Under the pieces are notes generated by a model that was not told the DNA's origin, made no database searches, and was given only the letters and a program-made list of their open reading frames with translations. DNA of 64,000 nucleotides from an uncultured delta proteobacterium (GTDB lineage Bacteria; Myxococcota_A; UBA9160; UBA6930). The stretch spans positions 40,959 through 104,958 of the forward strand of contig CAVQTC010000005.1 in NCBI GenBank assembly GCA_963716275.1, read 5' to 3'. The position numbers and the translations under genes are program-made. Every line of letters starts with the position of its first letter. The first letter of the stretch is position 1. This document shows, in pieces, positions 15,519-59,713 of this stretch.

Positions 15519-16734
15519 TTGCCCGACCATCCGACGAATCCGAGCGTCCGGCTGCTCGATCGCTTCTTCTATCTCGACCCGCACCCGCACTTCCGCTGGC
15601 TGCGCGAGCACGCCCCGGTCTACTGGGACGCGAGCTCCGACGGAGGCATCTGGGGCGTCGCCCGCTACGACGACGTGCTCGCGGTCTCGCGCCAGCCGGA
15701 GCTCTTCTGCTCGGGCCAGAGCTCGCGGCCCGAGCGCGGCTCCTGGATCCCGTCGATGATCAACCTCGACGATCCGCTCCACAAGCGCCGCCGCAACCTC
15801 GTGAACCGCGGCTTCACGCCTCGCCGCGTCGAGGCCCACGAGCCGATGCTGCGCAAGCTGACGGGCGAGCTGATCGACGCGGTCGCCCCGCGCGGCGAGT
15901 GCGACTTCGTGCGCGACATCGCGCGCTGGATCCCGATGGTCGTGATCGGCGACATGCTCGGCGTGGAGCCGCGAGGATCGCGAGCGGCTCCTGGTCTGGT
16001 CGGACGAGATGCTGGGCGGCGGCGAGGCGCAGCACATCGCCGACGAGGAGGCGCGGCGCGCGCACCAGCGCGTGATCGCGACCGAGTACATGACCTACGC
16101 CGCCCGGGTGATCGCGGATCGGCGCGCGCGGCCGCGCGACGATCTGATGAGCATCCTCGCCCACGGCGAGGTCGACGGCGATCGCATGACGGACGAGGAG
16201 ATCCTGCAGGAGAGTCTGCTGATCCTGATCGGCGGCGACGAGACCACGCGCCACGTGATGACGGGCGGCCTGCTCGAGCTCCTGCGCCGCCCCGCGCAGA
16301 AGCGGCGCCTGCTCGAGAACCCGGGCCTCGTCCCGAGCGCCGTCGAGGAGATGCTGCGCTGGGTGAGCCCGATCCAGAACATGAATCGCACCGCTACGCA
16401 GGACACCCTGCTGCGCGGCCAGCAGATCCGCGCGGGCGACCGCCTGCTGCTGCTCTACCCCTCGGCGAACCGCGACCCCGCAGCCTTCCCAGAGCCCGAC
16501 GAGTTCGACGTGGCGCGCGAGCCCAATCGCCACGTCGCCTTCGGCGGCTACGGCACCCACCACTGCCTCGGCGCGAGCCTCGCGCGGCTCGAGCTGCGCG
16601 TGCTCCTCGAGGAGCTCTTGCGCCGTCTCCCGGATCTCGAGCTGGCCGAGGGCGAGCTGCCCGTGCGGCCCGGGAACTTCATCGTGGGCCTCGAGCGGAT
16701 GAGGCTGCGCTTCTCACCCGGGGGCGCCTCGTGA
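15519..16734 (+). pseudogene. Cytochrome P450; one frame disruption; TTG start
   Basis: The N-terminal 151 aa are in ORF 15519..17495 and the rest is in ORF 16009..16734. Motifs are the I-helix GGDETT, EMLRW, and the heme loop FGGYGTHHCLGASLA. The span is 1216 nt (3n+1), with the shift near 15972. Confidence 0.82.
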
Positions 16735-23036: not shown

Positions 23037-23040
23037 GCAG

Positions 23041-23079
23041 GAATCGAAATTTCGGGGTCTGACCCCGAAATTTCGATTC
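23041..23079. terminator. Perfect 19-bp-arm palindrome between convergent genes (bidirectional terminator or dual operator)
   Basis: GAATCGAAATTTCGGGGTC T GACCCCGAAATTTCGATTC. It begins 5 nt after the stop at 23034-23036 and ends 7 nt before the stop at 23086-23088. Each arm contains the self-complementary CGAAATTTCG. Confidence 0.6.
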
Positions 23080-23085
23080 TGCGGG

Positions 23086-24243
23086 TCAAGCGCCGAACAG
23101 CTTCTCGAAGTTCTCGCTGTAGAAGCGCGCGCGCGTCGCCTCGCTCGCGTCGCCCAGTGACGCCTCGAAGCGTCCGAGCGGATTGCGCCCGCCTTCGAAG
23201 TGGGGGTAGTCGCTCGAGAACAGGTAGAGCCGATCGTCGGATTGTCGGATCAGCGTGCCCACGTCCTCATAGGGATAGGGCGTGAAGGCGAGCTGCTCGG
23301 CGACCTGCTGGGAGGGCTTGCGCTGGAGCGCGCGCAGATCCGGCTCCGACTTCTTCCAGACCTCGGCGACCCAGTCGAGGCGCGCGACCAGCGACGGCAC
23401 CCAGCCCGCGCCGAGCTCGATCGCCCCGCCGCGCAGGCGCGGGTGGCGCTCGAGCACGCCGTCGAGCACGAGCGCGCCCAGGAAGGTCTCCGCCGCGTGA
23501 TGCAGGGAGGTCATGTCCTTCCCGCGCACGTTCTCGCCGCCACCGAGCCAGTCGGTGGGGACGGGGCGGCCGGTGTTCATCCAGGCTGGCTCCACCTGGA
23601 GCGGATCGCCGCCCACGTGGAGCACGAAGGGCATGCGCGCATCGGCGAGGGCCGCCCACACCGCATCGAGCTCGTCGTGGCCCGGAGAGCGACCGCCGCA
23701 GGGTCGGTGCGGCACCCAGGCTGCCTCGAGTCCGAGGCCGAGCGCGTGCTCGAGCTCGGCGAGCGCGAGCTTCGTGTCGTCGAGCGGCAGCGCCGCGACG
23801 CCCATCAGCCGCGCGTCCTCGCCGCAGAATGCCGCCATCGCGCGGTTGTGTGCGCGCGCAGCGCCGTAGCGCACGTCGAGCGGCTCGTTGCCGTAGAAGG
23901 CCGGCCCCACCGAGAAGGTCGAGAACACGAGCTGGCGCTGGAAGCCGAGCAGGTCGAGCGCGCGGCTGCGCTCCTCTCCGTTGAAGGCGCCGAGCGCCGC
24001 GTAGCCCTTCGGCCCGCTGATCAGCTGGTCGCCGAGCGCGACCATCTCCGCCACGCGCTCGGGGGTATGCCCTTTGCGCCGGGCGGCGTCCTCGAGGCCC
24101 GAGGCCGAGCGCCCGCCCGAGGCGAACGAGATGCGCGGGAGACGCTCGCGCAGCGCCGGGTCCGCGAACTCGGTCAGAAAATCCGGCAGCTCCATGATGT
24201 GGCTGTCGGCGTCAAAGGTCGTGCGCGTCCCCGCATAGGCCAT
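23086..24243 (-). CDS. Amidohydrolase_2-family metal-dependent hydrolase/decarboxylase
   Basis: Intact 385-aa ORF with FDADSHIME near the N-terminus and SSDYPHFEG near the C-terminus. Confidence 0.8.
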   Translation of the reverse strand: MAYAGTRTTFDADSHIMELPDFLTEFADPALRERLPRISFASGGRSASGLEDAARRKGHTPERVAEMVALGDQLISGPKGYAALGAFNGEERSRALDLLGFQRQLVFSTFSVGPAFYGNEPLDVRYGAARAHNRAMAAFCGEDARLMGVAALPLDDTKLALAELEHALGLGLEAAWVPHRPCGGRSPGHDELDAVWAALADARMPFVLHVGGDPLQVEPAWMNTGRPVPTDWLGGGENVRGKDMTSLHHAAETFLGALVLDGVLERHPRLRGGAIELGAGWVPSLVARLDWVAEVWKKSEPDLRALQRKPSQQVAEQLAFTPYPYEDVGTLIRQSDDRLYLFSSDYPHFEGGRNPLGRFEASLGDASEATRARFYSENFEKLFGA

Positions 24244-24315: not shown

Positions 24316-25323
24316 TCAGGCGGACCGCCTCCTCCGGGACCTGCGAAGCTCGAGGGGGATGGCATCCGCCTGGGCGGAGAGATCGACGACCCGGAAGTCG
24401 TGCTTGTAGGAGCGCAGCGCCTCCCAGGCCTCCAGCCGCTGAACCCCAGCGTGCAGGGCCAGCTTCTCGAACACGAGCCGCGCCAGCTCATCACGGCCCG
24501 GCGTGCTGACCAGAGCGATTACGTCGAAGCGGCCCAAGGTGATGCCGACGAAGCCCGCCGCCGGCTCCCTGGCGATCGCCTCGGCGACCCTGTGCGCCGC
24601 GCCTCGTCGCGCTTTGACGGCGATCCAGGCCGCGTATCCACCCGGGCCGATCGAGACGTCGGTGACCGCCTGGATGCGGAGCAGTGCCGCGTCCTCGAGA
24701 CGCCTCGTGCGCGCTCGGATCGTGCCCTCGGAGCAGCGCAGCCGCCTACCGATCTCGCGAAAGCTCGTGCGAGCATTCTGCTGGAACGTCTCGAGGATCT
24801 CGCGGTCGATGTCGTCGAGCTCGTTGGTCGCGTCGGCGGGGAGACGGCGCGGAGCGAGTCGATCGAGGGTCGCCCAATCGGTGCGATGGCGGACTCGCTT
24901 CAGGACGAGAAAGGACTCCAACTCCTCGACGCCGGCGATCGCGCCCACGCCCTTCTCGAGCTGCTCGGAGAGGTCCTGCTGGTCGCGAGCGTACATCGAC
25001 GCCACCACCTCGAAGCCCCCGAGGCACGAAGTGATGCCAGTCACCGAGGGGAGCGCGGCGATCTCTTCGGCGACGTCCGCAGGGCGCCGTCCCGACACCT
25101 GGATGCCGACGATCGCGAAGAGCGTGTACCCGACGATCCGCACGTCGAGGACCGCGAGCACTCGCAGCAAGTTCTCGCGTTCGAGGCGGCGGATGCGCGC
25201 AGCAACCGTCTGCTCGGTGACTCGCGCGGCCTTGGCCAGCGACCGATTCGTCGCGCCCGGGTGGCGCCGAAGGCACTCGATGATCTCGCGATCGAGGTCG
25301 TCGACGAGGGACGCGGCGGGCAT
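24316..25323 (-). CDS. Tandem-duplicated (double) Lrp/AsnC-family transcriptional regulator
   Basis: 335 aa from ATG 25321-25323. There are two complete HTH plus RAM/ACT-like repeats, with HTH regions NRSLAKAARVTEQTVAARIRRLE and SFREIGRRLRCSEGTIRARTRRLE. Confidence 0.8.
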   Translation of the reverse strand: MPAASLVDDLDREIIECLRRHPGATNRSLAKAARVTEQTVAARIRRLERENLLRVLAVLDVRIVGYTLFAIVGIQVSGRRPADVAEEIAALPSVTGITSCLGGFEVVASMYARDQQDLSEQLEKGVGAIAGVEELESFLVLKRVRHRTDWATLDRLAPRRLPADATNELDDIDREILETFQQNARTSFREIGRRLRCSEGTIRARTRRLEDAALLRIQAVTDVSIGPGGYAAWIAVKARRGAAHRVAEAIAREPAAGFVGITLGRFDVIALVSTPGRDELARLVFEKLALHAGVQRLEAWEALRSYKHDFRVVDLSAQADAIPLELRRSRRRRSA

Positions 25324-25337
25324 CGACGGCGCGCGCC

Positions 25338-26354
25338 TCAGAGCGTCTTGCGGCGCAGCGTGCGCCGCTGACTCGGAGGCGAGTACGCGCTCGCGCCGAC
25401 CGTTCTCACCGCCGACAGCCTCGCCACGCGGAGGTCGTTCTTGTAGGAATGCAGGCCGTTCCAGGCCTCCACGCGCTGGACTCCCCCCATGAGCGCCACA
25501 TCGTCGAACACGAGGCGGGCGATAGCCTCGCGATCTTCGGCGATCACCAAAGCAAGCACGTCGAAGCGGCCCAGCGTGATGCCGAGGAAGGCGATCTCGG
25601 GCTTCCTGACGATCGCTTCGCAGACCCGGCGCATCCAGCCGCGCCGGGTCTTGATTGCGATCCAAGCCCAGCTCGACCCTGGCTGGATGGAGATGTCGGT
25701 CACCGCCTGGAGTCTGCAGACGCCCTCGTTCTCCATCTGCCGCAGTCGCGTGCGGATGGTGCCCTCCGAGCGGCCGAGGCGCCGCGACACTTCGCGCAGG
25801 CTCGTGCGCCCGTCCTCGCGCAGCTGATCGAGAATCGCTCCGTCGAGGCGATCCCCCCGTTCGAGGCGGATGGCGGTCACCGGGGAGAGGGAGTCGAGTT
25901 GCGCCCAGTCGACGCGATAGAGGAGCTGCTCGAGCACCAGGAAGGACTCGATCTCCTCCACGCCCCGAATCGCTCCGATCTGTCGCTCGAGTTGCTCGTA
26001 CAGATCATCCTCGCCGCGCGCGTACAGGACGGCAACGAGCTCGTACCCGCCCAGGCAACTGGCGAGGCTGGAGACGCAGGGGAGCTCGACGAGCTCGGTA
26101 GCGACTTCTGCGGGCGCGCGCCCCGAGACCTGGATCCCTGCGATCACGAAGCGTGTGAAGCCGGCGGCCTCCATGTCGAGGACCGCGATCACGCGCAACA
26201 AGTTCGCCTGCTCGAGCCTGTGAATGCGCGCCGCGACCGTCTGCTCTGTGATGCCCAGGGCGTCGGCAATCGAGCGGCTCGTCGCACGCGCGTCCTGTTT
26301 CAAGCAGGCGATGATCGAGCGATCCACGGCGTCGACACGATTCGCATCCGCCAT
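25338..26354 (-). CDS. Tandem-duplicated (double) Lrp/AsnC-family transcriptional regulator (paralog 2)
   Basis: 338 aa from ATG 26352-26354 (MADANRVDAVDRSII). The HTH regions are SRSIADALGITEQTVAARIHRLE and SLREVSRRLGRSEGTIRTRLRQME. Confidence 0.8.
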   Translation of the reverse strand: MADANRVDAVDRSIIACLKQDARATSRSIADALGITEQTVAARIHRLEQANLLRVIAVLDMEAAGFTRFVIAGIQVSGRAPAEVATELVELPCVSSLASCLGGYELVAVLYARGEDDLYEQLERQIGAIRGVEEIESFLVLEQLLYRVDWAQLDSLSPVTAIRLERGDRLDGAILDQLREDGRTSLREVSRRLGRSEGTIRTRLRQMENEGVCRLQAVTDISIQPGSSWAWIAIKTRRGWMRRVCEAIVRKPEIAFLGITLGRFDVLALVIAEDREAIARLVFDDVALMGGVQRVEAWNGLHSYKNDLRVARLSAVRTVGASAYSPPSQRRTLRRKTL

Positions 26355-26548
26355 GGTTCCAGCCGCCTCGCTCGGGAATCGCGCGGCAGGATAGCCGCGC
26401 CGGCCGCGCGCTCGCCGCTCTCGCCTGGGCCCGCTGAAACGCGTTATAAGACCCATACGGGCATTTTATCAGCAGTATGCGCAATATTTTCTTGTAATCC
26501 CTGCGGCAACCAAGAATAATGCGCGCCGCCCCAGGAGGTGCGCCCCGG
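26355..26548. promoter_or_regulatory. Divergent AT-rich control region (double-Lrp gene and TonB receptor)
   Basis: The sequence ...CATTTTATCAGCAGTATGCGCAATATTTTCTTGTAATCC... includes TATGCGCAATA at 26477-26487. Confidence 0.45.
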
Positions 26549-29214
26549 ATGGTCAAGTTTCTCGCCTGCCTCGCCACGAGTCTCTGCCTGCTCGCGTCAC
26601 CGCTTCTGGCTCAGCAGCCCGCACCTGAGAGCGCCCAGGCCACGGCAGCCTCCAGGCCGGCGATCGAGGAGATCGTGGTGACCGCCGAGAAGCGAGTGTC
26701 GACCGTCCAAGCGACGCCCATCGCGATCACTGCACTGACGAGCGAGTGATCGAGGACGGGCCGGCTCTACAGCCCCGACCGGCTCCAGTGGTCCGTGCCC
26801 TCGATGACCTACGGGCAGCAGTCCAGCTACAACTTCATCACGTTGCGCGGCATCGGCGGCGACGTGACGGTCTCTGCCGAGTCATCCGTCGCGTCCTACG
26901 AGGACGGCGTCTACACCGGATCGCTGCTCAGCCAGCAGGTCCCGGGCTTCGATCTCGAGCGGATCGAGGTGCTGCGCGGGCCGCAGGGGACGCTCTACGG
27001 CCGCAACTCCGACGGCGGCGTCGTCAACTACATCAGCAAGGCGCCGAGCTTCGAGCCCGAGGCGAATCTCGCCGTGGCCTACGGGAAGTACAACGAGCTC
27101 CAGATCGACGCCGGCGCGACGGGCGGAATCATCGAGGACAAGCTCGCAGGCCGGATCTCCGTTCGATACGAGAAGCACGACGGCTACCGGCACAACATCG
27201 TCCTCGACGAGGACGAGTACGACCTCTCCACCGCCGCGGTGCGCGTGGCTCTGCTGTTCACGCCCAGCGAGGACTTCAGCCTGACGGTGCGAGGCGGATA
27301 CGCGAGCCACGAGACCTCGGCCGCCTACACGGTGCTCTCGGCGACTCCGACGGGGCTCCCGGGGACCGATCCGCTGACGAACATCACCGGGGGGCCGTAC
27401 GGGACGGCGCCCCTCGGCATCTTCTCCATGCCGGCACAGTTCTTCATCGACGCCCCAGGGCTCATGTCGCCGGCCGATATCGCGTCCCTCGCGGGCGGCA
27501 GCATCGCGGACTTCTACGGGCTCGTGCCGGCTGGCCCGGTCCCTCCAGATCCGGAGAAGAAGCTGAAGCACTCGAACGCAGTCGAGTCCAGCTACGACAT
27601 CGACCAGTACAACTTCAGCGCGACCATGGACTGGGATGTGGGCCCGTTCGCGTTCAAGTCGATCACGGCGTATCGCTACGGGAAGCTGACCTTCACCCAG
27701 GACAGCCTGGGCGCCGGAACGCCGGGCGTCGTCTTCTTTCCGCTGACCCACGTGACGAGGCAGTTCACTCAGGAGTTCAACTTCAGCGGGACCGCGTTCG
27801 ACGAGAAGCTCGACTGGCTCGGCGGCGTCTACTACTTCCGCGACGACTCGCACTTCAACACGTCGGTCTGGCTTCCGACCACGGGCGACTCGTTCCTTGC
27901 GGCGTGCGGCACCACCGCCGGGCTCGCGTTCCTCAATGCCACGCTGGGCTGCACGACGAGCGACGGGCGCGTTTCCCTTCGCGCCTCGTCCCCCAGAGCG
28001 CCTTCCCGTACGACGTCTGGCAACAGTTCCCGAGCGACCCGCTCACGCAGATCACCAAAGGGTCTCGATCAGAGAATCCCGTCGGCGCGGGTGGGTCCGG
28101 TGAGTCCTGGCGACGTGCCCGGAGCAGGCGTTTCTCGGCTTCGATACGGAGCAGCTCAGCTGGTCGGCCGCGGGCTTCACTCCAGCTCACGTACCACCTG
28201 ACGGACCGCCTCCGCGCCACGGGCGGGTTCCGCTACACGTTCGACGAGAAGGACGTGACGCGCTCGCTGCACTCGAACCTGATCGCGACCTTGATCAACG
28301 TCGGTCTCGCGAGCCCGGTCGCCCCGGACGGCGTGACGCCGACGCTCTGCGACGAGCAGAAGGACGACATCACGTGGGATGCCTACACGGGCACCGCAGG
28401 CGTCGACTACGACGTGCTCGAGGACGACGATGCTCTACGCCAAGTATTCGCGCGGCTACAAGGGTGGTGGCTGGAACCCGGGCGAGTGCGGCGAGGCGTA
28501 CGACCCGGAGCACCTCTCGGCTTACGAGACGGGCGTGAAGTCGACGTTCTGGAATGGCCAGGCGCGGACCAACGCCGCGTTCTATTGGTACGACTACGAC
28601 GACATCCAGTTCACGCTGTACGTCCCGAATCAGTCGTTCATCCGCAACGCGGGCACGCGCGACGGCCTACGGTCTCGAGCTCGAGTACCTCGTTCGCCCA
28701 GACTTGCTCTCGGGCGTCCAGCTCGACGGGTCGGTCTCCTGGGAGCACTCCGAGTACGGCAAGGGATTCTTCCAGGACGTCGCGGGCATCGTTCAGGCGC
28801 CGCCAGTCGGACCGGGCATCCCCATCAAGGGGAACGAGCTGATTCGCGCTCCCGAGTGGAAGGCGAATCTGGGCGCGCAATACACCTTCGACGCCGGCGA
28901 CGTCGGCAGCTTCACGGCGCGGGTCGAGGGCACCTACACCTCCACCTACTACAACGACATCTTCAACGGCGAGGCTCCCTTCGCGGAAAACGACGGTGCA
29001 GCCCGATTTCTGGCTCGGCAATGCGCGCCTGAGCTGGGAATCAGCCGATGGCCGCTACGAGGCGATGTTCTTCATCGACAACTTCACCGAGGAGCTCTAC
29101 GCCGAGAACCGCGTGTCCTTCAACACGCCCTCGGCCCTCGTGATGGTGGGCGGGCAGATGGCCGCGCCGCGAACCTTCGGCTTCCGCGTCTCGGCGAGGT
29201 TCGGCGGCCAGTAG
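26549..29214 (+). pseudogene. TonB-dependent outer-membrane receptor; heavily frame-disrupted, with a TGA at 26747
   Basis: The signal peptide and plug (MVKFLACLATSLCLLASPLLAQQ...IEEIVVTAEKR) are in ORF 26519..26749. The barrel pieces are in ORFs 26795, 26746, 28379, 28554 and 28996 (VLRGPQGTLYGRNS, LDWLGGVYYFRDDS, GGFRYTFDEKDV, YSRGYKGGGWNPG, LIRAPEWKANLGAQYTFD, ...FGFRVSARFGGQ). I count at least 8 frame changes: around 26747-26765, 27965-28190 (several), 28435, 28660 and 28990. Confidence 0.75.
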
Positions 29215-32729: not shown

Positions 32730-32916
32730 CCAGCCGAGCCGCTCTTAAAGTTTGCGTTCTTTAGTTGTAGTATAACGGTGCAAAGTGTATTTTGAGCGGG
32801 ACGGCACTTCAATGGCGTGCACGGCTTGCCGAGCAGGTCCCAGGGCAGCGCTTCTGAAGTCGGCTCGGATCGGCGCACGGCTGGACGGCGCACAAGAAAG
32901 GCTGGAGGTCGAGGAA
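32730..32916 (+). promoter_or_regulatory. Candidate sigma70-type promoter and leader of the LLM gene
   Basis: TTAAAG-N17-TAGTAT lies at about 32745-32773. It overlaps GTTTGCGTTC (32750-32759). Confidence 0.4.
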
Positions 32917-35478: not shown

Positions 35479-35605
35479 CTAGGCTCCTCGCCCGCGGGGT
35501 TGCCGATAGCTACGATCGAGGGTCGATTTTACTTAATTTTGCGCAGGAGAGTCAAAATAAGAAAACGTATAATATGATTTGAATGCCAACTTGAGGAGCC
35601 CCCGC
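35479..35605. promoter_or_regulatory. Divergent AT-rich control region (APH gene and BVMO relic/CoA-transferase operon)
   Basis: It contains TTTTGCGCAG (35537-35546) and a perfect TATAAT (35568-35573). GAGGAG lies 7 nt before ATG 35606. Confidence 0.45.
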
Positions 35606-35980: not shown

Positions 35981-38440
35981 ATGACCGGAGGGTCTCCTCC
36001 GCTCACGGACCTGCGCGTCCTCGATTTCAGCGACGAGCGCGGTCTGCTCTGCGGACAACTGCTCGCCGACCTCGGCGCCGACGTGGTTCAGGTCGAACCG
36101 CCGGGCGGGAGTGGTGCGCGGCGACTCGGCCCCTTCCTCGACGCCAGGCGGGATCCAGAGCGATCGCTGACCTGGGCGGCGTATGCACGCAACAAGCGCG
36201 GCATCACCCTCGACCTCGAGCGCGAGGTAGACCGGACGACGGCGCGCGAGCTCGTGCGCCGAGCGGACTTCGCAATCGAGTCGAGCGACCCGGTCGAGCG
36301 CTCGCGGCTGGGTCTTGGGTACCAGGAGCTCTCGCGCGAGAATCCCGCGCTCATCGTCGTTTCGATCACTGCATTCGGGCTCGACGGCCCGAAGGCGCAG
36401 TGGGCGGCGAGCGACCTCGTCGTGCAGGCGGCTGCGGGGAATCTTCTGCTGCAAGGCGACGAGGACCGGCCGCCCGTGCGGGTGAGCAGCCCGCAGGCGT
36501 TCCATCACGCGGCGGCGGAGGCGGCCTTTGGCGCACTGATCGCGCACACGGAGCGCGTGCGCTCCGGGCGGGGGCAGCACGTCGTCGTCTCCGCGCAGCA
36601 GGCGCTGCTGTCGGCGACGCAGGGCGAGGCGCTGAGCGTTGCCGTGGGCGACGTCGCGGGCGGAAGGGCAGGGGGTGGGCTGCGCCTCGGGCCGTTCCGG
36701 ATGCGCTTCACCTATCCCGCGAAGGACGGCTACGTCTCCATCATGCACGCCTTCGGCCCCGCGTTCGGCGCCGCCACCGCGCGGCTCATGGCGTGGATGG
36801 CCGAGAGCGGAGAGTGCAGCGCCGAGCTGCGCGACACCGACTGGGTCGGCTTCGGCGCGAGAATGTTCCGCGGCGAGGCGACACCCGACGAGCTCCTGGA
36901 GGCTCAGGCACGGGTGGCCGCGTCGACGAGCAAGCGCTCGAAGCAGGAGCTCTCGAGGCTCGCACTCGAGCGCAAGCTCCTTCTCGCTCCCGCAGCGACG
37001 CTCGCGGATCTGCTGGCGAGCGAACACTTCGAGAAGCGCGCAAGCTTCTGGAGGACCGAGCAGGCGGGCGTTCCAGTCACCCTACCGGGTCCCTTCGCGC
37101 GCCTCTCGCGGACGCCGCTGCGCTCGCGCCGCGGCGCTCCGCGAATCGGCGAGCACGATGCCGAGGTGCGGCGCGAGTGGCTCGCATCGCCTCCACGCGC
37201 TGGGCAGCCGCCAGCCGCGTCCTCGAAGGAGGCGTGTTCGAAGCCAGCGCTGGCAGACCTCAAGGTGCTCGACTTCTCCTGGGCGATCGCGGGCCCTACG
37301 GCGGGCCGAACGCTCGCGGACTTCGGGGCGACCGTCGTGCGCGTCGAGTCGGCGCGGAAGCTGTGCCCCAACCGCAGCGTGCGCCCCTTCCTCGGCGGCC
37401 GCTTCGGCGGCGAGCGCTCGACGCTCTTCCACAACATGAATGCCGGTAAGCTCCAGCTCGGGCTCGATCTCACGAAGCCCGGAGCGAAGGACGTGGCGCT
37501 CGATCTCGTGCGATGGGCCGATGTCGTGGTCGAGTCGTTCGTGCCTGGTGCGCTCGCGCGCATGGGACTCGGATACGACGTGCTCCGGGCCGCGAAGCCA
37601 GACGTGATCCTGGTGAGCTCTTCGCTGCTCGGTCAGACCGGGCCGCTCTCCTCGCTCGCTGGCTACGGCAACCTCGGCGCCGCGCTCGCCGGGTTCCTCG
37701 AGCTGACCGGCTGGCCGGATCGAGCGCCGGTCGGACCGTACGCCGCCTACACGGACTACATCGCTCCGCGCTTCACGGGCGCGGTGCTGCTCGCGGCGCT
37801 CGATCACCGCCGCCGAACGGGAGAAGGGCAGCACATCGATCTCGCGCAGGTCGAGACTGGGCTCCACCTGCTCGCCCCGCTCATCGCCGAGACGTCGGCG
37901 ACTGGAAGGGTTGCGACGCGTCGCGGCAACGAGGATCCCGACTGCTGTCCGCACGGCGTCTACCCTGTTGCGGGCGAGGATCGCTGGATCGCGCTCGCGA
38001 TCGCGTCCGACGCCGAGTGGCGTGCGCTCTGCGCCGTGCTCGGCCTGCCCGGCGAGGCGGCGTTGCTGAACGTCGAGCAGCGCCGCGCGAGAACGGCGAC
38101 CCTCGACGCCGAGATCTCCCGGGCCACCGCAGCGTGGGCGGGCGAGAAGCTCGAAGCGGCGCTGCAAGAGCGCGGGGTTCCAGCGCACCGGCTCCAGGAC
38201 AGCGCCGACCTGAGCGCCGATCCGCAGCTCCAGCACCTCGGGCACTTCGTCGAGATCGAGCATCCGAACGAAGGCCGCGCCGTGGTCGAGGCGTGCCGGA
38301 TTCGCCTCTCCCGCACGCCGGCGCGGCCCCCGCGCGTCGCTCCGACGCTCGGAGCGGACAATCAACGCGTGCTCGAGGAGATTCTGAGGTACGACGCGGA
38401 GCGGATCGCAAAGCTCGCGATCGACCAGGTGTTGGACTGA
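35981..38440 (+). CDS. Fused double family-III (CaiB/BaiF) CoA-transferase
   Basis: Intact 819-aa ORF. Two N-terminal signatures lie about 420 aa apart: LRVLDFSDERGLLCGQLLADLGADVVQVE and LKVLDFSWAIAGPTAGRTLADFGATVVRVE. Confidence 0.82.
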   Translation: MTGGSPPLTDLRVLDFSDERGLLCGQLLADLGADVVQVEPPGGSGARRLGPFLDARRDPERSLTWAAYARNKRGITLDLEREVDRTTARELVRRADFAIESSDPVERSRLGLGYQELSRENPALIVVSITAFGLDGPKAQWAASDLVVQAAAGNLLLQGDEDRPPVRVSSPQAFHHAAAEAAFGALIAHTERVRSGRGQHVVVSAQQALLSATQGEALSVAVGDVAGGRAGGGLRLGPFRMRFTYPAKDGYVSIMHAFGPAFGAATARLMAWMAESGECSAELRDTDWVGFGARMFRGEATPDELLEAQARVAASTSKRSKQELSRLALERKLLLAPAATLADLLASEHFEKRASFWRTEQAGVPVTLPGPFARLSRTPLRSRRGAPRIGEHDAEVRREWLASPPRAGQPPAASSKEACSKPALADLKVLDFSWAIAGPTAGRTLADFGATVVRVESARKLCPNRSVRPFLGGRFGGERSTLFHNMNAGKLQLGLDLTKPGAKDVALDLVRWADVVVESFVPGALARMGLGYDVLRAAKPDVILVSSSLLGQTGPLSSLAGYGNLGAALAGFLELTGWPDRAPVGPYAAYTDYIAPRFTGAVLLAALDHRRRTGEGQHIDLAQVETGLHLLAPLIAETSATGRVATRRGNEDPDCCPHGVYPVAGEDRWIALAIASDAEWRALCAVLGLPGEAALLNVEQRRARTATLDAEISRATAAWAGEKLEAALQERGVPAHRLQDSADLSADPQLQHLGHFVEIEHPNEGRAVVEACRIRLSRTPARPPRVAPTLGADNQRVLEEILRYDAERIAKLAIDQVLD

Positions 38441-44312: not shown

Positions 44313-44460
44313 CAGCGCGCTCCTTGACCCGCGGGGGGTCCGGTGGGGCCGTAAAATCACTTTCTCGCCAATTCTACACTGTAGTTCGCGTAAAAAATAC
44401 TGTATTATTCTGCGCGTATTGATTCCATCCACCCTCGTCCAACGAGACAGGAGACCCCGC
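44313..44460. promoter_or_regulatory. Divergent AT-rich control region (serine hydrolase and amidohydrolase pair)
   Basis: It contains GTTCGCGTAA (44384-44393) and TTCTGCGCGTAT (44408-44419). TACACTGTA and ATACTGTAT repeats lie about 21 nt apart. Confidence 0.4.
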
Positions 44461-51515: not shown

Positions 51516-52354
51516 GGGGCGCCTCGCGGCCGCACGCGCGGGAACTCGGGATGCCGGAACGGCTCGCCGGGCGCGAGCCGGCCCGGGAGGAGCTGGAACA
51601 CGCTCGTGGCGCGCGCCTCCGGGATCGAGACGCTGGTGAGCGCGGTGCGCGGCACGTAGCGCGCGTCGGCCCCGAAGAAGCGCAGCGACACGGTGCGGCG
51701 CCGCTGACCGGCGCGCGTCGCGGCGCCGCCGTGGAGGAGGCCGGGGTGGAACGCGACCACGTCGCCGGGCTCGACGGCGAAGCCGACGATGTCCCATTTC
51801 TCCCGCTCGGCCTCGATGTTCGGCAGGCGCGGCAGCGAGCCGTCCCCGTAGAGCGGGGCCGTGTCGTCCTGCGGGTCGAAGCGCGAGCCGTCGTAGAGCG
51901 GCCCCCGATGCGATCCCCGCACGAACTCGAGGGCGTTCGCGCGCGGGACCGCGTCGAAGGAGATCCACAGCACGGCGAGCTGCGCGCCGTCCACCGGCAG
52001 ATAGGAGGAGTCCTGATGCCAAGGCGTGCGCCGCGTGTCGCCGCCTTCCTTCAGGAAGACCTGCTCGTACATGAACCACACGTCGGCCGCGCTCCAAAGA
52101 AGCGCCGCGAGATCGGCGGCCGGGGAGTCGTGCACGAGGTCGCGGTAGGCGGGCTGCGCCTCCCGGTTGGCGAGATCCTGATAGAAGAGGCCGCCTCCTT
52201 CGTACCGCGAAGCGCTGGGGCTCGGGTGCGCGAGGCTCCACGCATAGGCGCGCTCGGCCAGCGCGAGGGCGCGCGCGTCGAGCGCGCCGCGCAGGCAGAC
52301 GACGCCGTCGGCCGCGAAGGCGGCCTGGAGATCGCGCTCGGTCGCGTCACGCAA
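51503..52354 (-). CDS. Phytanoyl-CoA dioxygenase (PhyH) family Fe(II)/2-oxoglutarate oxygenase
   Basis: Intact 283-aa ORF with PWHQDSSY (HxD) and the distal His in FHPGLLHGG. It overlaps the convergent gene by 13 nt. Confidence 0.75.
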   Translation of the reverse strand: MRDATERDLQAAFAADGVVCLRGALDARALALAERAYAWSLAHPSPSASRYEGGGLFYQDLANREAQPAYRDLVHDSPAADLAALLWSAADVWFMYEQVFLKEGGDTRRTPWHQDSSYLPVDGAQLAVLWISFDAVPRANALEFVRGSHRGPLYDGSRFDPQDDTAPLYGDGSLPRLPNIEAEREKWDIVGFAVEPGDVVAFHPGLLHGGAATRAGQRRRTVSLRFFGADARYVPRTALTSVSIPEARATSVFQLLPGRLAPGEPFRHPEFPRVRPRGAPQTT

Positions 52355-53498
52355 GCTGGTAGATCCGCCGCACGTTGTCGCCGAGCAGCTTGGCGCGCGT
52401 CGTGGGGCTGAGGGTCGAGACGTAGCGCTCGAGGTCCGGCACCCAGGTGTGCGGGTGGTCCGGGTGCGGGTAGTCGGTGGCCCACATGAAGCAGTCCGCG
52501 CCGACGTGGTCGATCGTGTAGGGCGCCGCGGTCTCGTCGGGATCGCCCGAGATGAAGCACTGGCGGCGGAAGTAGTCGCTGGCGGTCGGGCGCGAGGCGG
52601 CGCCGCGGCGATTCATCGCCCGGAAAAGCGCCTCGAAGCGGTCGAGGAAGGCGCCCATCCAGCCGCTGCCCACCTCGAGCACGCCCACGCGCAGCTCCGG
52701 GAAGCGGTCCAGCGTGCCGAGCGTGAAGAAGGAGAAGAAGGCCTCCTGGGAGAGCGCGCGCAAGCGGATCAGGTCGCCGATGCCGCGCGTCTGGCCCGGC
52801 CAATCGAAGTTGCCGGGCGCCATCTCGAGCGGTGTGAAGGTGGGATGGATCGCGAGCGGCACGCCGAGCCGGCTGCACGCCGCGAAGATCGGGTCGTGCT
52901 CGGGGCTCCCGTGCACGATGCGCCGGTGGTTGAACGGATTCACCCAGGCGCCGCGGCAGCCGTCGCGCGACCGCGCGCTCGAGCTCCTGCGCGGAGCCCT
53001 CGGGATCGAGCAGCGTGAGCTGCGCGATCGGCACCAGGCGCCCCTTCGTGTCGCGGCAGAAGTCGGCGATCCAGCGGTTGTACGCGCGCGCGTAGGCGAG
53101 CGAGAGCTCCGGGTCGGTGACCTCGCACTCCCAGAGCAGGCCGATCGTGGGGTAGAGGAGCGCCTTCTCGAGGTTCTCCTGGTCGAGGAGATCGACGCGC
53201 TGCTTCGGGTCCGAGGCGCCGTACGGGAAGCTCTCGGCATAGCGGCGGTCCGGGCGGGGCATCATGTCCTCCTCGCCCATCGCTCCGAGCAGACCGAGCG
53301 AGCCCTTGACCGTCCGCTTCGAGGGCTTGCCGTCGATCTCGAGGTACTCGTAGCCCTGCGCGTCGGTCTGGATGCGCATGCGCCCGCTCGCGGAAGCGCG
53401 CCTCGAGGTAGTTGCTCCCACAGGTCCGGCGGCTCGAGCACGTGGCCGTCCGCGTCGATGGTGCCGGGGTAGGGGAAGCGCCGAATCTCGTAGGCCAT
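52347..53498 (-). pseudogene. Amidohydrolase_2-family hydrolase (paralog); frame leaves and returns
   Basis: MAYEIRRFPYPGTIDADGHVLEPPDLWE is in ORF 53262..53498. The middle part is in ORF 52051..54273. The C-terminal part (WATDYPHPDH) is in ORF 52347..53240. The shifts lie near 53410 and 52975, and the total span is 3n. Confidence 0.75.
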
Positions 53499-53540: not shown

Positions 53541-54569
53541 TCAGCCAGTACCGCGGCGGTTGCCCTTGCGCGCGCGCGGCGAGCGCGCAGCCGTGATCGC
53601 GGCCGGCAGCGCTCGCGATGCCGAGAGCTTCGCGATGCGGAAGTCGTTCTTGAAGCTCTGGAGCCCGCCCCACGCTTCCACGCGCTGCACGCCTCCGATC
53701 AGCGCGACGTTCTCGAAGACCAGGCGCGAGAGCTCGTCGCGATCCGCCGCGACCACGAGCGCAATCACGTCGAAGCGGCCCAGCGTGATGCCCACGAAGC
53801 CCGCCTCGGGCGCCTTTGCGATCGCCTCGGCGACGCGCCGGATCCACCCGCGCCGCGCCTTGATCGCCACCCAGACGGAGTTCAGGCCGGGTCCCACCGA
53901 GATGTCCGTCACGGCCTGGAGGCGACAGATGCCCTCCGCCTCCATGCGCCGCAGCCGCGCGCGGATCGTCCCCTCGGAGCGGTCGAGGCGGCGGCCCACC
54001 TCGCGCAGGCTGGTGCGGCCGTTCTCCTGGAGCTCGGCCACGATCGCACGATCGAGCTGGTCGAGGCCGCTCCCGCTGACCGGCTTGACCGCGATCGGCC
54101 CGAGCACCTCCATGCTCGCCCAGTCGACGCGGTGCAGGACCTGCTCGAGCACCAGGAAGGACTCGATGTCTTCGACGCCTCGGATCGACCCGATTCGGCG
54201 CTCGAGCTGCTCGAACAGATCCGCCTCGTCGCGCGCGTAGAGCGTCGCGACCAGCTCGAAGCCCCCGAGGCACGAGGCGAGGCCGGTGACGGTGGGCAGC
54301 GTGGCGATCTCCGCCGCGACCTCGGCGGGCGGCCGGCCCGAGACCTGGATGCCGGCGATCACGAAGAGTCCGTAGCCCGCGGCCTGCATGTCGAGCACGG
54401 CCATCACCCGGAGGAGCTTGGCGTCCTCCAGCCGCCGGATGCGGGCGGCGATGGTCTGCTCAGTCACGTCGAGCGCCTCGGCGATCGAGCGATTCGTCGC
54501 GCGCGCATCCTGCTTGAGCCGATCGATGATGGCGCGATCGAGCTCGTCGACTCCCTTGGCGTCGGTCAT
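53541..54569 (-). CDS. Tandem-duplicated (double) Lrp/AsnC-family transcriptional regulator (paralog 3)
   Basis: Intact 342-aa ORF. The HTH regions are NRSIAEALDVTEQTIAARIRRLE and SLREVGRRLDRSEGTIRARLRRME. It shares many identical residues with 25338..26354 when the two are aligned by eye. Confidence 0.82.
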   Translation of the reverse strand: MTDAKGVDELDRAIIDRLKQDARATNRSIAEALDVTEQTIAARIRRLEDAKLLRVMAVLDMQAAGYGLFVIAGIQVSGRPPAEVAAEIATLPTVTGLASCLGGFELVATLYARDEADLFEQLERRIGSIRGVEDIESFLVLEQVLHRVDWASMEVLGPIAVKPVSGSGLDQLDRAIVAELQENGRTSLREVGRRLDRSEGTIRARLRRMEAEGICRLQAVTDISVGPGLNSVWVAIKARRGWIRRVAEAIAKAPEAGFVGITLGRFDVIALVVAADRDELSRLVFENVALIGGVQRVEAWGGLQSFKNDFRIAKLSASRALPAAITAARSPRARKGNRRGTG

Positions 54570-54603: not shown

Positions 54604-56097
54604 TCACGCGGCGAGCATCTCCGCCCGCGTGGGCCGCACGCTCCGCTCCTCGAGCGCCCGGCGCTGGCGCGGCCGCGTCAGTGCGAAGCGTGCGAGCCCC
54701 AGCCAGGCGCGCGGGTCGCGCGTCCACGCGGACATCCCGGCGAGGCCGTGGTAGCCGGTCCAGATCGCGCGGAACACCGCGGGATCGGCGAGCTGGGCCT
54801 CGTCGAGCAGATTCGAGAACGCCTCGCGCGCGCGGTCGGCGACGCTCGCCGCGCGCCGTCCGGCGGCCACTTCGAAGCGGCGGCGCGTCGCGCGGTCGAT
54901 GGCGAGTGTCGTCTCCCAGTCCCGGCGGAGCTCGGAGCGGAGCGCGCGCTCGTAGCGGAGCGCGCGTTCGAGGGGGTCCGGCGTGGCGGCGAGCACCGCC
55001 GCGAGCTGGTCGGCCGAGACGAACGCCCACGTGCAGCCACGCCCATAACGCGGATTGGTGCGAACCGCCGTGTCGCCCGCGAAGAAGAACCCCAACACCC
55101 CAGGCCGGCCGCCGGCGAGCGTGCTCCGCCAGTACGCGTCCATCGCACCGAAACCGAAGATGTCGCTGATCGGCCGCGCCTGCTCGGGGGACACCCAACG
55201 CGCGAGCACCGGGAGACGCATGCAGAGCGCCTGGAACTTCACGGGGTCCTTCACGACGCGCGCGAGCTCCGGATCGTCGCGGTAGACCTGGAACGTGACG
55301 GTGAAGGTGCCCGAGTCCGCCGGGAGCGCTCCGATCACGAAGTCGGCGAAGATCTGGCCCGGCAGGCCGTGAGAGCTCGGCAGCTGGCGCCCGGGCAGAA
55401 GCTCGTAGTGGCGCGTGAAGTAGACGATGCCGGCGTCGTGCTGCTCGACCCCGAGCGGAACTCCGAGCGCCGCTAGGTCGCCCGCGAGGCTTCCCGCGCG
55501 GCCCGAGGCGTCGACCACGATCTCGGCGTCGACCTGCACGTCGCGACCATCTGCGCGTCGCACGCGCACGCCCTCGACGCGAGCGGGCGCCTCGGCGTTC
55601 GCAGCGCGGCCCACGAGCTCGGTCACCTCGCAGCTGCTCTCGATGCGGGCGAGGCGCCGCTCTTCCACGTAGTCGCGCAGCACCCTCTCGAAGGTGGTGC
55701 GCCGCGCAGCGATCGACGTGAGCGCCGCGTCGCCGGGACTCTCCTGGTAGCGGCGGCGCGCGAGCGGGTGCAGGGATTCGACGAAGCGCCCCTCGCCGGC
55801 GCCTGCCGCAGCCAGGCGAGCGAGCAGATCCGGATGGCGCGCCCGCAGAGACTCGCGTAGGCGCCCCATGAAGAAGTGGGGATGGACCGCCTGAGGCACG
55901 CCACGCCTTCGCTCCGAGATCGCGCGCACCGACTCGGAGCCGCCGCGCGGCGCTGCGTCGCGCTCGTAGAGCGTGACGTCGAACCCGCGCTCGGAGAACG
56001 CGAGCGCGCACGAGAGGCCCGCCATGCCCGCGCCGACGACCGCGACGCGCTCGCTCACGGGGCGATCAGCGCTCGCCTCAGCGCTTGCTCTCGCCAT
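54604..56097 (-). CDS. FAD-dependent oxidoreductase/monooxygenase
   Basis: Intact 497-aa ORF with VAVVGAGMAGLSCALAFSERG (GxGxxG). The exact start is uncertain. Confidence 0.7.
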   Translation of the reverse strand: MARASAEASADRPVSERVAVVGAGMAGLSCALAFSERGFDVTLYERDAAPRGGSESVRAISERRRGVPQAVHPHFFMGRLRESLRARHPDLLARLAAAGAGEGRFVESLHPLARRRYQESPGDAALTSIAARRTTFERVLRDYVEERRLARIESSCEVTELVGRAANAEAPARVEGVRVRRADGRDVQVDAEIVVDASGRAGSLAGDLAALGVPLGVEQHDAGIVYFTRHYELLPGRQLPSSHGLPGQIFADFVIGALPADSGTFTVTFQVYRDDPELARVVKDPVKFQALCMRLPVLARWVSPEQARPISDIFGFGAMDAYWRSTLAGGRPGVLGFFFAGDTAVRTNPRYGRGCTWAFVSADQLAAVLAATPDPLERALRYERALRSELRRDWETTLAIDRATRRRFEVAAGRRAASVADRAREAFSNLLDEAQLADPAVFRAIWTGYHGLAGMSAWTRDPRAWLGLARFALTRPRQRRALEERSVRPTRAEMLAA

Positions 56098-56470
56098 GGA
56101 TCTGGTTCGATCTCCCGGTCGGATCGGCCGCGTAGCTGTGGTCCTGCACCACCTGGCCGCGCTCGTCGAAGGTGAGGAACACGCAGGCCGGGAAGGTCGC
56201 GCCCGGGAAGATGCCCTCGCACTCGAGCGCCACGGTGTCGCCGCTCGCGACCGCCTTCAGCACGCGCAGCCGGCGCGTTGGGGCGATCTCCACCATGCGC
56301 AGCTCGAACTTGCGCAGCTCCTCGCGCCCGCGCAGGGTCACGCCGCGCAGCATGTCCACGACCTCGCAGTCGGGGGCATAGACCTCGTCCACCATCTTCT
56401 CGACGGCGTGGTTGTAGGTCTCCTCCCAGCGCGCGACGGCCTGGAGATTGCGGCGTTCCTGATCGGTCAT
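56078..56470 (-). CDS. SnoaL-like/NTF2-fold protein (polyketide-cyclase-like)
   Basis: Intact 130-aa ORF that overlaps the downstream start by 20 nt. Confidence 0.6.
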   Translation of the reverse strand: MTDQERRNLQAVARWEETYNHAVEKMVDEVYAPDCEVVDMLRGVTLRGREELRKFELRMVEIAPTRRLRVLKAVASGDTVALECEGIFPGATFPACVFLTFDERGQVVQDHSYAADPTGRSNQIHGESKR

Positions 56471-56557
56471 GTCGGCCTCCCCGTATGCGCGGATTCTACC
56501 ACTGCGACGGTCACCCGTTCAAGATTGCGATTGAATTCTCAAAGGAGTCTACGCAAA
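56471..56557. promoter_or_regulatory. Divergent control region (SnoaL-FAD-Lrp operon and hydrolase-SDR-ACAD operon)
   Basis: It contains GTATGCGCGG (56483-56492), GATTGCGATTG (56523-56533) and an AAGGAG Shine-Dalgarno sequence. Confidence 0.4.
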
Positions 56558-57595
56558 CTGTGGGACGTCTCCGAGGTGCCGGTGGCGCTCCGCAACCGCT
56601 TCGTCCGGGCGAATGGCCTTCGCACGCACCTCCTCGAAGGGGGCAGCGGCCCGCCGTTGATCCTGCTCCACGGCTGGCCCGAGACCAGCCACGAGTGGCG
56701 AGGCGTGGGCGCGCGGCTCGCAGAGCACTTTCGCGTGATCGCGCCGGACACGCGCGGCCACGGGCGCAGCGAGGCGCCTCCCGCCGGCTACACGCGCGCC
56801 GAGCTCGCGCGCGACGTCGTCGGCCTGATGGATGCGCTCGGGCTCGAGCGCGCGGCGGTCGCCGCGCACGACTGGGGCGGCATCATCGCCGTGAAGCTCG
56901 CGCTCGACCATCCCGACCGGGTCGCGAAGCTCGCGCTGCTCGACACGATCTGCACGGGCTGGCCGATCTTCGTGACCTACTTCTACTGGATGATGGTGCC
57001 CGGCCGGGCCGAGCGCTTCTTTGGCGAGCGCTCGCGCGACTTCATCGCCTCGATCATCGGAGGCCGGAGCGAGCGGCCCCTTCCGCCGCCGCCGGAGTGC
57101 CCGATCGAGTTCGCGTCCCCCGGCCTCACGGCGCCGCGGCCGTGGGCGAAGCCCGCCGACCTCGAGGAGTACGCAGCGCCCTACGAGCGCCCCGGCGAGC
57201 TCGCGGCGACGCTCGCCTACTACCGCTCGATGCAGTTTCACCGCGTGATCGCGGACCCGAGTGCGCCCCACGGCGAGCGCTACGAGCCCGTCTCCCACGC
57301 AGAGATGGCGCGGGCCTGGGAGGCCGGCAGGGCCGGGGGCGAGTACCTCGACTACGGCGTCGAGGATCGCCACAAGCAGTACCCGGGCCCGACGCTCTGG
57401 CTGTACGGGAACTATCTGGTCGCGGCGGCGGCTGCGCGGCTCGATGCGCGCGGCTTCCCGAGCGGCGACCCGGCGTTCGACTCGTTCCCGCGCCACTTCC
57501 CGAATCTGCGCGCGCGCGGTGTCGAAGGCGGCCACTTCTTCCCGGAAGAGGATCCGGGCGGGACGGCGGCGGCGCTCTTGGAGTTCCTGGGTTAG
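56558..57595 (+). CDS. Alpha/beta hydrolase, epoxide-hydrolase/dehalogenase-like
   Basis: Contains HGWPETSHEW and the nucleophile elbow AHDWGG, inside ORF 55973..57595. The start is uncertain: CTG 56558 lies about 10 nt after AAGGAG, and the alternative is GTG 56576. Confidence 0.72.
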   Translation: MWDVSEVPVALRNRFVRANGLRTHLLEGGSGPPLILLHGWPETSHEWRGVGARLAEHFRVIAPDTRGHGRSEAPPAGYTRAELARDVVGLMDALGLERAAVAAHDWGGIIAVKLALDHPDRVAKLALLDTICTGWPIFVTYFYWMMVPGRAERFFGERSRDFIASIIGGRSERPLPPPPECPIEFASPGLTAPRPWAKPADLEEYAAPYERPGELAATLAYYRSMQFHRVIADPSAPHGERYEPVSHAEMARAWEAGRAGGEYLDYGVEDRHKQYPGPTLWLYGNYLVAAAAARLDARGFPSGDPAFDSFPRHFPNLRARGVEGGHFFPEEDPGGTAAALLEFLG

Positions 57596-59624: not shown

Positions 59625-59713
59625 GGGGACGTTCGTTTACGAAGTTTACGAGTGAGACGATTGCGCACGACTCCGAGCGGTCGTTCTCGTAAACTTCGTC
59701 AACGAACGTCCCC
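59625..59713. terminator. 89-nt imperfect palindrome (28-bp arms, 1 mismatch, 33-nt structured loop) at a convergent junction
   Basis: The left arm is GGGGACGTTCGTTTACGAAGTTTACGAG (59625-59652) and the right arm is CTCGTAAACTTCGTCAACGAACGTCCCC (59686-59713). An inner 5-bp stem pairs ACGAC with GTCGT. The element starts 4 nt after the ACAD stop. Confidence 0.6.

Follow-up and report, generated by a model that had tools for sequence, protein, structure and literature searches.

Tandem Lrp/AsnC proteins of an uncultured deltaproteobacterium as probable single-chain regulators with a candidate operator

Three paralogous genes in a 64,000-nucleotide stretch of DNA from an uncultured delta proteobacterium (assembly GCA_963716275.1, contig CAVQTC010000005.1, forward-strand positions 40,959 to 104,958; the whole stretch is called the window below) encode proteins of 335 to 342 amino acids, here named A, B, and C, in which the complete Lrp/AsnC unit of a helix-turn-helix (HTH) and a RAM domain occurs twice. 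We consider A, B, and C to be genuine single-chain Lrp/AsnC regulators whose chains would act as pseudo-dimers at bipartite DNA sites and respond to a small molecule, and we assign this explanation as a whole a probability of roughly 0.8. It builds on the observed architecture, conservation, and age of the fusion, on synteny, and on the conservation and position of a DNA motif upstream of the operon that contains the gene for C. Few prokaryotic regulators are as widespread as the Lrp/AsnC proteins, and to our knowledge all mechanistic understanding of them comes from symmetric homodimers that build octamers.

A preliminary description of this DNA, made from the letters alone, had reported three open reading frames (ORFs) of this length within about 30 kb, each encoding two HTH and two RAM domains, and this was borne out. 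The three ORFs are present on the minus strand (Table 1) and span 30.25 kb, and 14 bp separate B from A, which follows it downstream; no fourth Lrp-like gene was found in the window using tblastn. Searching Pfam identified in each protein two HTH_AsnC-type/HTH_24 domains (E 1e-22 to 6e-25) and two AsnC_trans_reg (RAM) domains (E 1e-17 to 1e-20), arranged approximately as HTH 8-52, RAM 66-146, HTH 169-214, and RAM 228-308. The second half, which might have lacked one of the two folds, contains an intact HTH and an intact RAM domain and is conserved as strongly as the first, and both peptides quoted earlier were located in protein C. The top NCBIfam matches were the Lrp-type regulators LrpA, LysM, AsnC, Lrp, and ChrS, each matched twice, but the best scores for these named equivalogs (78-93 bits) were below the NCBIfam cut-offs of 180-250, indicating that A, B, and C are members of the family and orthologues of no named regulator. 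Exact sequence look-up of protein C returned no record. Mechanically listed ORFs are longer (449 amino acids for A, 372 for B) via upstream starts, and an in-frame ATG at 26456, upstream of the start of B, would add 34 residues. Alignment with A, C, and homologues favors the start of B at 26354, and the starts giving 335 and 338 amino acids are supported by the N-terminal alignment, in which A, B, and C have the pattern M..A..VD.LDR.II in common, and by public gene calls of 338 and 335 amino acids.

Because frameshifts or an in-frame stop interrupt several other genes in the window, indels are evidently present in either the assembly or the genome, and it was considered whether the long ORFs might be an artefact in which a lost stop or an indel of the assembly had run two ordinary neighboring Lrp genes together. 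The same architecture is, however, found in all three paralogues. When these were cut at residue 160 and the halves compared, N-half matched N-half at 59-72% identity and C-half matched C-half at 57-65%, whereas N-half and C-half were only 25-35% identical; overall, the paralogues are 55-66% identical, with A sharing 55-60% with B and C. The internal duplication must therefore long predate the paralogues. Proteins B and A were also called side by side, and identical, on a Logan contig from another sequencing run, and both genes are open in a strain from a bog metagenome that is approximately 96% identical. The only indels inside A or B in that strain are an in-frame 6-bp insertion and a 6-bp deletion, 11 bp apart, in the linker of B (25872-25883), which fits a flexible, tolerant linker. 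Among the 40 differences listed between the two strains, 19 are synonymous and 21 non-synonymous; for A, the figures are 15 and 10, respectively. Joining by a lost stop or by assembly was ruled out by the second-run contig, the divergence of the halves, the lengths of the homologues described below, and the open genes of the bog strain, so that the probability left to an artefact is practically nil. By these sequence comparisons the fusion is ancient, and not the product of a lost stop. Outgroup proteins resemble A and C about equally (63-72%) and B less (55-60%), so A and C look like recent duplicates and B like the more diverged paralogue.

The preliminary description had raised the question of how rare fused Lrp forms are; they proved far from rare. 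A phmmer search of 1.84 billion cluster representatives (50% identity) returned 5695 matches at E<=1e-3, 1491 at 1e-10, and 109 at 1e-30. Among the 150 best representatives, which come from Myxococcota, Actinomycetota, and Alpha- and Gammaproteobacteria and from many unrelated assemblies, 147 are double-length (298-384 amino acids), and nearly all align collinearly over query residues 7-313. A pattern-limited scan for tandem Lrp genes in GTDB species representatives found full-length genes at 66-73% identity in metagenome-assembled genomes of Myxococcota or 'Deltaproteobacteria'. At 32-41% identity, it found them in Solirubrobacterales, Acidimicrobiales, Mycolicibacterium, Halieaceae, Spongiibacteraceae, Pseudomonadales, Caulobacterales, Hyphomonadaceae, Croceicoccus estronivorus, and Sphingomonas. 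In most of the distant tandem loci, the first half was nearest to the N-halves of the window proteins and the second half nearest to their C-halves, which suggests one old, widely spread fusion; some of these half comparisons were ambiguous at the protein level. Cultured organisms with such proteins or loci include Rhodococcus aetherivorans (WP_450089082.1, 332 amino acids), Nocardia nepalensis (337 amino acids), Mycolicibacterium moriokaense, Croceicoccus estronivorus, and Sphingomonas jatrophae. Databases already carry tandem forms, under no other name than 'Lrp/AsnC family transcriptional regulator', and a literature search of incomplete coverage yielded no work on the function or structure of a tandem Lrp/AsnC transcription factor. 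A, B, and C are thus new members of a known family, within a widespread subfamily for which no characterized member was found.

The three-dimensional structure of C was predicted as a single chain with AlphaFold2 using a 47-sequence alignment. The model was compact, with a mean predicted local distance difference test score (pLDDT) of 89 and a predicted template modeling score (pTM) of 0.84, and it showed the canonical topology of three helices followed by beta-alpha-beta-beta-alpha-beta twice, with a less confident linker (residues 147-168) and disorder from approximately residue 316. Structural comparison with the PDB revealed only one full-length match, the fused protein NirDL (4CH7, 4CZC), with template modeling (TM) scores of 0.62-0.69 and 16-17% identity; all other matches covered half of the model and were single-unit Lrp/AsnC regulators or stand-alone RAM proteins. 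In agreement, PDB sequence searches with the tandem proteins returned only chains of 66-190 amino acids, the best being PH0140 for the C-half (E 1e-20) and PH1519/FL11 and LrpA for the N-half. No solved tandem Lrp transcription factor was found among the PDB sequence and structure matches. As far as a predicted structure can indicate, the compactness of the model and the way it superposes on NirDL over its full length agree with the earlier idea of a covalent dimer, in which the RAM-RAM beta-sheet pairing that forms Lrp dimers would be intramolecular.

The match to NirDL raised the question of whether A, B, and C might be siroheme decarboxylase-type enzymes, like fused NirDL or AhbA-AhbB, and not transcription regulators. 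AhbA/AhbB and NirDL have the Lrp fold as well, and in archaea fusions of AhbA with AhbB are frequent (PMC4145669); A, B, and C also gave weak matches to the AhbA/AhbB and NirdL-like_HTH models. However, the AhbA/AhbB scores were 26-35 bits against cut-offs of 125-140, and NirdL-like_HTH was likewise below its cut-off. The HxYxR motif, which is conserved in AhbA/AhbB and faces the central cavity (PMC4145669), was found in 0 of the 47 family members, and the identity to NirDL (16-17%) is lower than that to single Lrp regulators (22-33%). Approximately 25 annotated neighboring genes included no match to a haem, haem d1, or radical-SAM family, and the Lrp consensus is retained, with strong conservation, in both recognition helices. 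Siroheme decarboxylase identity was ruled out by the absence of HxYxR, the hidden Markov model scores below cut-off, and the gene context, and we regard an enzymatic role of this kind as very improbable. The same three absences argue that A, B, and C are regulators.

Within protein C, the first HTH comprises helices 9-20, 26-33, and 37-49 in the AlphaFold2 model. Across the 47-sequence family alignment, E37 and R43 are invariant in the N-terminal head (TEQT..AARIRRLE), and E199, G200, R203, and R205 are invariant in the C-terminal head (SEGTIRARLRRME). In the Lrp of Mycobacterium tuberculosis (MtbLrp), effector sites are located at the dimer interface and between dimers and involve a loop with a conserved glycine, Gly102 (PMC2175373). 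The corresponding ligand-loop glycine is kept in both RAM domains of C, with G102 present in at least 90% of the sequences and G264 invariant, and the second RAM loop aligns to the TGAHD loop of PH0140. That the chain has non-identical DNA-reading heads and effector pockets, as had been proposed, is a fair inference given halves that are 25-35% identical and recognition-helix residues that are invariant in a half-specific manner.

An alternative would be that only one half works and the other is a degenerate scaffold that supplies a dimer partner, with neither DNA reading nor ligand binding. The arms of the motif described below are alike (TTGCG on both sides), so that one head type could suffice; the N-terminal RAM loop has a Glu where the C-terminal one has the usual Asp, and the C-half scores better against solved regulators. 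MtbLrp, however, likewise has a Glu at the equivalent loop position (PMC2175373). Moreover, mean column conservation in the close family is equal for the two HTH domains (0.83 for the first, 0.84 for the second) and the two RAM domains (0.83 and 0.81), which indicates that both halves are under similar constraint; both HTH domains pass Pfam independently, and each head has its own invariant residues. We therefore find a single working half improbable.

A further feature of these proteins is a basic C-terminal tail predicted to be disordered, encoded at 24319-24378 in A and 25341-25415 in B (for C, see Table 1). All 34 tail-bearing proteins of the close clade have tails of 18-48 residues rich in Arg and Lys (4-13 basic, 0-2 acidic). 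The tail is absent from P0034 and from 10 of 12 distant tandem Lrps; the other two (P0046 and P0048) have 8-residue tails without Arg or Lys. Judging from this distribution, the Arg/Lys-rich tail appears to be a gain within the clade of this Myxococcota-like lineage, and it probably adds non-specific affinity for DNA.

The gene for C is the third in a minus-strand series that encodes, in order, a SnoaL_2 protein, a flavin adenine dinucleotide (FAD)-dependent monooxygenase, C, an Amidohydro_2 protein, and a PhyH dioxygenase. The SnoaL-FAD-Lrp trio was conserved in 11 of 11 close loci (L001-L011), in which the partners are 72-84% (SnoaL_2) and 62-70% (monooxygenase) identical to those of the window. 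Among solved structures, the monooxygenase is closest to MonCI and LasC, two polyether epoxidases (E 6e-21 to 1e-12). Because the epoxide hydrolases MonB and Lsd19, which are partners of polyether epoxidases, have an NTF2/SnoaL-like fold, the conserved pair may, by analogy, consist of an epoxidase and an epoxide-opening enzyme in an apparently catabolic setting.

A bipartite motif, AGWTTGCG-N22-CGCAAWCT, lies upstream of this operon. It was found upstream of the orthologous operon in L001, L002, L003/L004/L009, L005, L008, L010, and L011, that is, at the operon promoter in at least eight loci, with a fixed spacing of 22 bp between TTGCG and CGCA(A), and also in the divergent regions between TonB-receptor and Amidohydro_2 genes of L001, L002, L003, and L010. 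The positions in the relatives are 1361 and 6021 (L001), 3854 and 3980 (L002), 168 and 6017 (L003), 71 (L005), 918 (L008), 416 and 4003 (L010), and 3962 (L011). One arm is usually followed by nnTGAAT(C), making the element internally asymmetric. In the window, the proximal arm borders directly on the -35 box of a promoter-like site. Scored with a weight matrix built from the other loci, with the window copy left out, this copy reached 44.6 bits; the second-best copy (Table 1) was followed by weaker sites at 35533-35576 (22.4 bits, between the APH-like and CoA-transferase genes) and 44380-44423 (18.3 bits), and a further motif-like copy is located at 59658-59695. TTGCG/CGCAA sequences occurred 8 times in AT-rich islands, compared with 1.9 expected, and 2 of 2000 shuffles reached 8. 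A sigma-54 promoter reading of TTGC was ruled out, as there is no GG element at the required distance upstream.

No DNA-binding regulator other than the tandem Lrp was recognizable within approximately 17 kb in L001-L003. With the motif at the promoter of the regulator's operon and the tandem Lrp as the only recognizable DNA-binding protein nearby, we propose the motif as the operator. The 27 bp between its arm centers exceed the reach of one pseudo-dimer, so that each site should take up at least two chains. Another factor might instead bind the motif, or it might be a feature of the promoter, with the tandem Lrps acting elsewhere. It is by position that motif and protein are linked, the distal arm and inner sequence could serve a divergent promoter, and TTGCG-type sequences occur in several AT-rich islands. 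Set against this are the fixed spacing and the location directly upstream of the regulator-encoding operon in so many loci, the lack of another annotated DNA-binding protein over the distance just given, and the fact that autoregulation and multi-dimer binding sites are usual in the Lrp family. We judge binding by another factor unlikely, although with a weight that has to be reckoned with.

Table 1 Coordinates of the tandem Lrp/AsnC genes, the parts of protein C, the candidate operator, and neighboring features in the window.
Feature	Position	Strand	Basis or remark
Gene A, tandem Lrp/AsnC regulator, 335 amino acids	24316-25323	minus	ORF and Pfam; HTH-RAM-linker-HTH-RAM plus Arg-rich tail
Gene B, tandem Lrp/AsnC regulator, 338 amino acids	25338-26354	minus	ORF and Pfam; most diverged paralogue
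Gene C, tandem Lrp/AsnC regulator, 342 amino acids	53541-54569	minus	ORF and Pfam, AlphaFold2 model, synteny in L001-L011
C, first winged HTH, residues 8-52, recognition helix TEQTIAARIRRLE	54414-54548	minus	Pfam; conservation 0.83
C, first RAM, residues 66-146, loop C-L-G102-G-F-E105	54132-54374	minus	Pfam AsnC_trans_reg 73-143
C, inter-repeat linker, residues 147-168, variable	54066-54131	minus	pLDDT 70-73; conservation 0.62
C, second winged HTH, residues 169-214, recognition helix SEGTIRARLRRME	53928-54065	minus	Pfam 169-210
C, second RAM, residues 228-308, loop T-L-G264-R-F-D267	53646-53888	minus	Pfam AsnC_trans_reg / AsnC_trans_reg_3
C, basic disordered tail, residues 316-342	53544-53624	minus	pLDDT <50
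Candidate operator AGATTGCG-N22-CGCAAACT, inner TGAAT beside one arm	56522-56559		Exact match to AGWTTGCG-N22-CGCAAWCT
Sigma-70-like promoter of the SnoaL-epoxidase-Lrp operon: TTGAAC, 18 nt, TG-n-TAGAAT	56493-56522	minus	Correctly placed for the SnoaL start
Second-best motif copy, 2 mismatches, 27.6 bits (matrix site 32746)	32749-32786		Just upstream of the luciferase-like monooxygenase gene
SnoaL_2 / NTF2-like protein, 130 amino acids, first module gene	56078-56470	minus	Pfam SnoaL_2; start MTDQERRNLQ
FAD-dependent monooxygenase, 497 amino acids, second module gene	54604-56097	minus	Pfam; PDB sequence search
Amidohydro_2 gene, 72 bp downstream of A	23086-24243	minus	Pfam
Divergent control region between B and the TonB-dependent receptor, 194 bp	26355-26548		AT-rich island 26432-26525, promoter-like site towards the receptor

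The three copies had been taken to suggest a regulatory family dedicated to this gene island, an idea that finds support only in part. In favor of this, C belongs to the conserved three-gene module, and the motif upstream of it recurs in degenerate form at other promoters of the island. For A and B, however, no syntenic counterpart was found in the loci examined, and an adjacent pair like B-A was not present within 6-8 kb in any of 66 loci. The Amidohydro_2 gene downstream of A is probably co-transcribed with B and A. In the control region between B and the divergent TonB-dependent receptor gene, the AT-rich island contains half-sites of the TTGCG type, ATAATGCGCG and, on the minus strand, TATTGCGCATAC. 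Products of the rest of the gene island, which is syntenic with the relatives' loci, include amidohydrolases, a luciferase-like monooxygenase, a P450 fragment, an APH-like kinase, a double coenzyme A (CoA)-transferase, a beta-lactamase-fold protein, a cyclase, and further TonB receptors; short-chain dehydrogenases/reductases and monooxygenases are also among the annotated neighbors.

Some of these genes are broken, either by indel errors of the assembly or as real pseudogenes, while the three Lrp genes are intact. The gene for the TonB-dependent receptor divergent from B (26549-29211) is interrupted by a TGA in frame at 26747 and changes frame at least four times; in the bog strain, a C is inserted after 26745 and one nucleotide is missing at 26757, which would bypass the TGA. 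The Amidohydro_2 gene downstream of C (52350-53498) is split over three frame segments, and the gene for a second TonB receptor (60936-63288) has one frameshift. ORF 16009-16734 covers just the C-terminal portion of a cytochrome P450 (positions 234-432 of the 462 in the profile), and the N-terminal portion is probably located upstream in another frame, another possible frameshift. The quinone-oxidoreductase and Amidohydro_2 genes converge on a near-perfect inverted repeat of 19-20 bp, GAATCGAAATTTCGGGGTC / GACCCCGAAATTTCGATTC, at 23039-23081, which probably forms a hairpin that terminates transcription in both directions. The 819-amino acid CoA-transferase encoded at 35981-38440, a further internally duplicated protein of the island, has two family III units in one chain (two Pfam stretches) and is 79% identical to an 816-amino acid homologue whose gene adjoins the tandem Lrp gene in L002.

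Taking these observations together, we propose a scheme in which the packing of the pseudo-dimer, its oligomeric state, the protein that binds the motif, the direction of regulation, and the ligand are all put forward conditionally. The two HTH-RAM units of one chain would pack like the subunits of an ordinary Lrp dimer, and each chain would be an obligate 1:1 pseudo-heterodimer whose two DNA-reading heads differ, as do its two RAM sensors; in this genome, the clade has expanded to at least three copies. C would bind AGWTTGCG-N22-CGCAAWCT abutting the -35 box of its own operon, with at least two chains per operator (a dimer of pseudo-dimers); the outer TTGCG arms would be recognized by one head type and the less conserved inner sequence by the other, and a small molecule in the RAM domains would modulate DNA binding. 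Bipartite sites beside other promoters of the catabolic island would likewise be occupied by two or more chains. B and A, divergent from the TonB-dependent receptor, would act likewise at their own locus. As the recognition helices of A and B are nearly identical to those of C, the paralogues may cross-talk with C or form mixed oligomers.

Several observations weigh against this explanation. Within the window, the motif pattern with up to 3 mismatches is only modestly above chance (3 occurrences against 0.56 expected, with 3 of 100 shuffles reaching 3), and the control region between B and the TonB receptor yielded half-site-like sequences but no full bipartite motif. As inverted repeats that are nearly identical, the motif arms do not in themselves call for two different heads, and another regulator could bind them. 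In the predicted structure, HTH spacing and RAM-RAM packing rest on the pTM and on the NirDL superposition (root-mean-square deviation 5.3-5.8 A), and NirDL, the structural match, is an enzyme with splayed HTH domains. Finally, B has 11 non-synonymous against 4 synonymous changes among the differences listed relative to the bog strain; judging by these counts, the constraint on B may be relaxed.

A more specific version of the scheme can be formulated, which we find rather doubtful and offer as speculation. The Myxococcota-type clade would form a distinct class of single-chain Lrp in which the two heads read TTGCG and inner TGAAT-like half-sites, respectively, two chains would occupy the 38-bp operator, and the tail would add non-specific affinity. 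The effector would be an intermediate of the flavin-epoxidase/NTF2-hydrolase pathway and not an amino acid, and mixed oligomers of the paralogues would integrate signals across the catabolic island.

The symmetry of Lrp would be broken in a natural covalent pseudo-heterodimer, and mutations specific to one head or one pocket, impossible in homodimers, could then be introduced into a single chain. A tandem Lrp would also reveal the way in which asymmetric Lrp units come together on DNA. This large subfamily is represented in cultured Rhodococcus, Nocardia, Mycolicibacterium, and sphingomonads, and the conserved operon with its candidate operator offers a concrete starting point. For annotation, double-length Lrp genes of this kind should be treated as real, being neither NirDL-type enzymes nor mis-assemblies.

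Compared with known systems, NirDL (4CH7, 4CZC) and AhbA/AhbB (4CZD) resemble A, B, and C in having two Lrp-like units, either in one chain (NirDL) or as an obligate heterodimer, but differ in being enzymes with the HxYxR active-site motif and a haem-pathway gene context. The tandem Lrps of cultured bacteria share the collinear HTH-RAM-HTH-RAM order at 32-41% identity, but are without the basic C-terminal tail and the SnoaL-epoxidase partner genes. The canonical Lrp/AsnC (FFRP) proteins, such as Escherichia coli Lrp and AsnC, M. tuberculosis LrpA (Rv3291c), and Pyrococcus FL11/PH1519, PH0140, and LrpA, correspond to each half of A, B, and C, with a winged HTH followed by a beta-alpha-beta-beta-alpha-beta RAM domain, the recognition-helix consensus, and the ligand-loop Gly. 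These proteins, of approximately 140-180 amino acids, form homodimers that go on to assemble, from tetramers to octamers and beyond, into complexes that wrap or bridge DNA; A, B, and C, by contrast, are each one chain of 335-342 amino acids with a linker of approximately 20 residues, to which the close clade adds the basic disordered tail. Since two diverged units are joined in that chain, the basic unit would be an obligate asymmetric pseudo-heterodimer.

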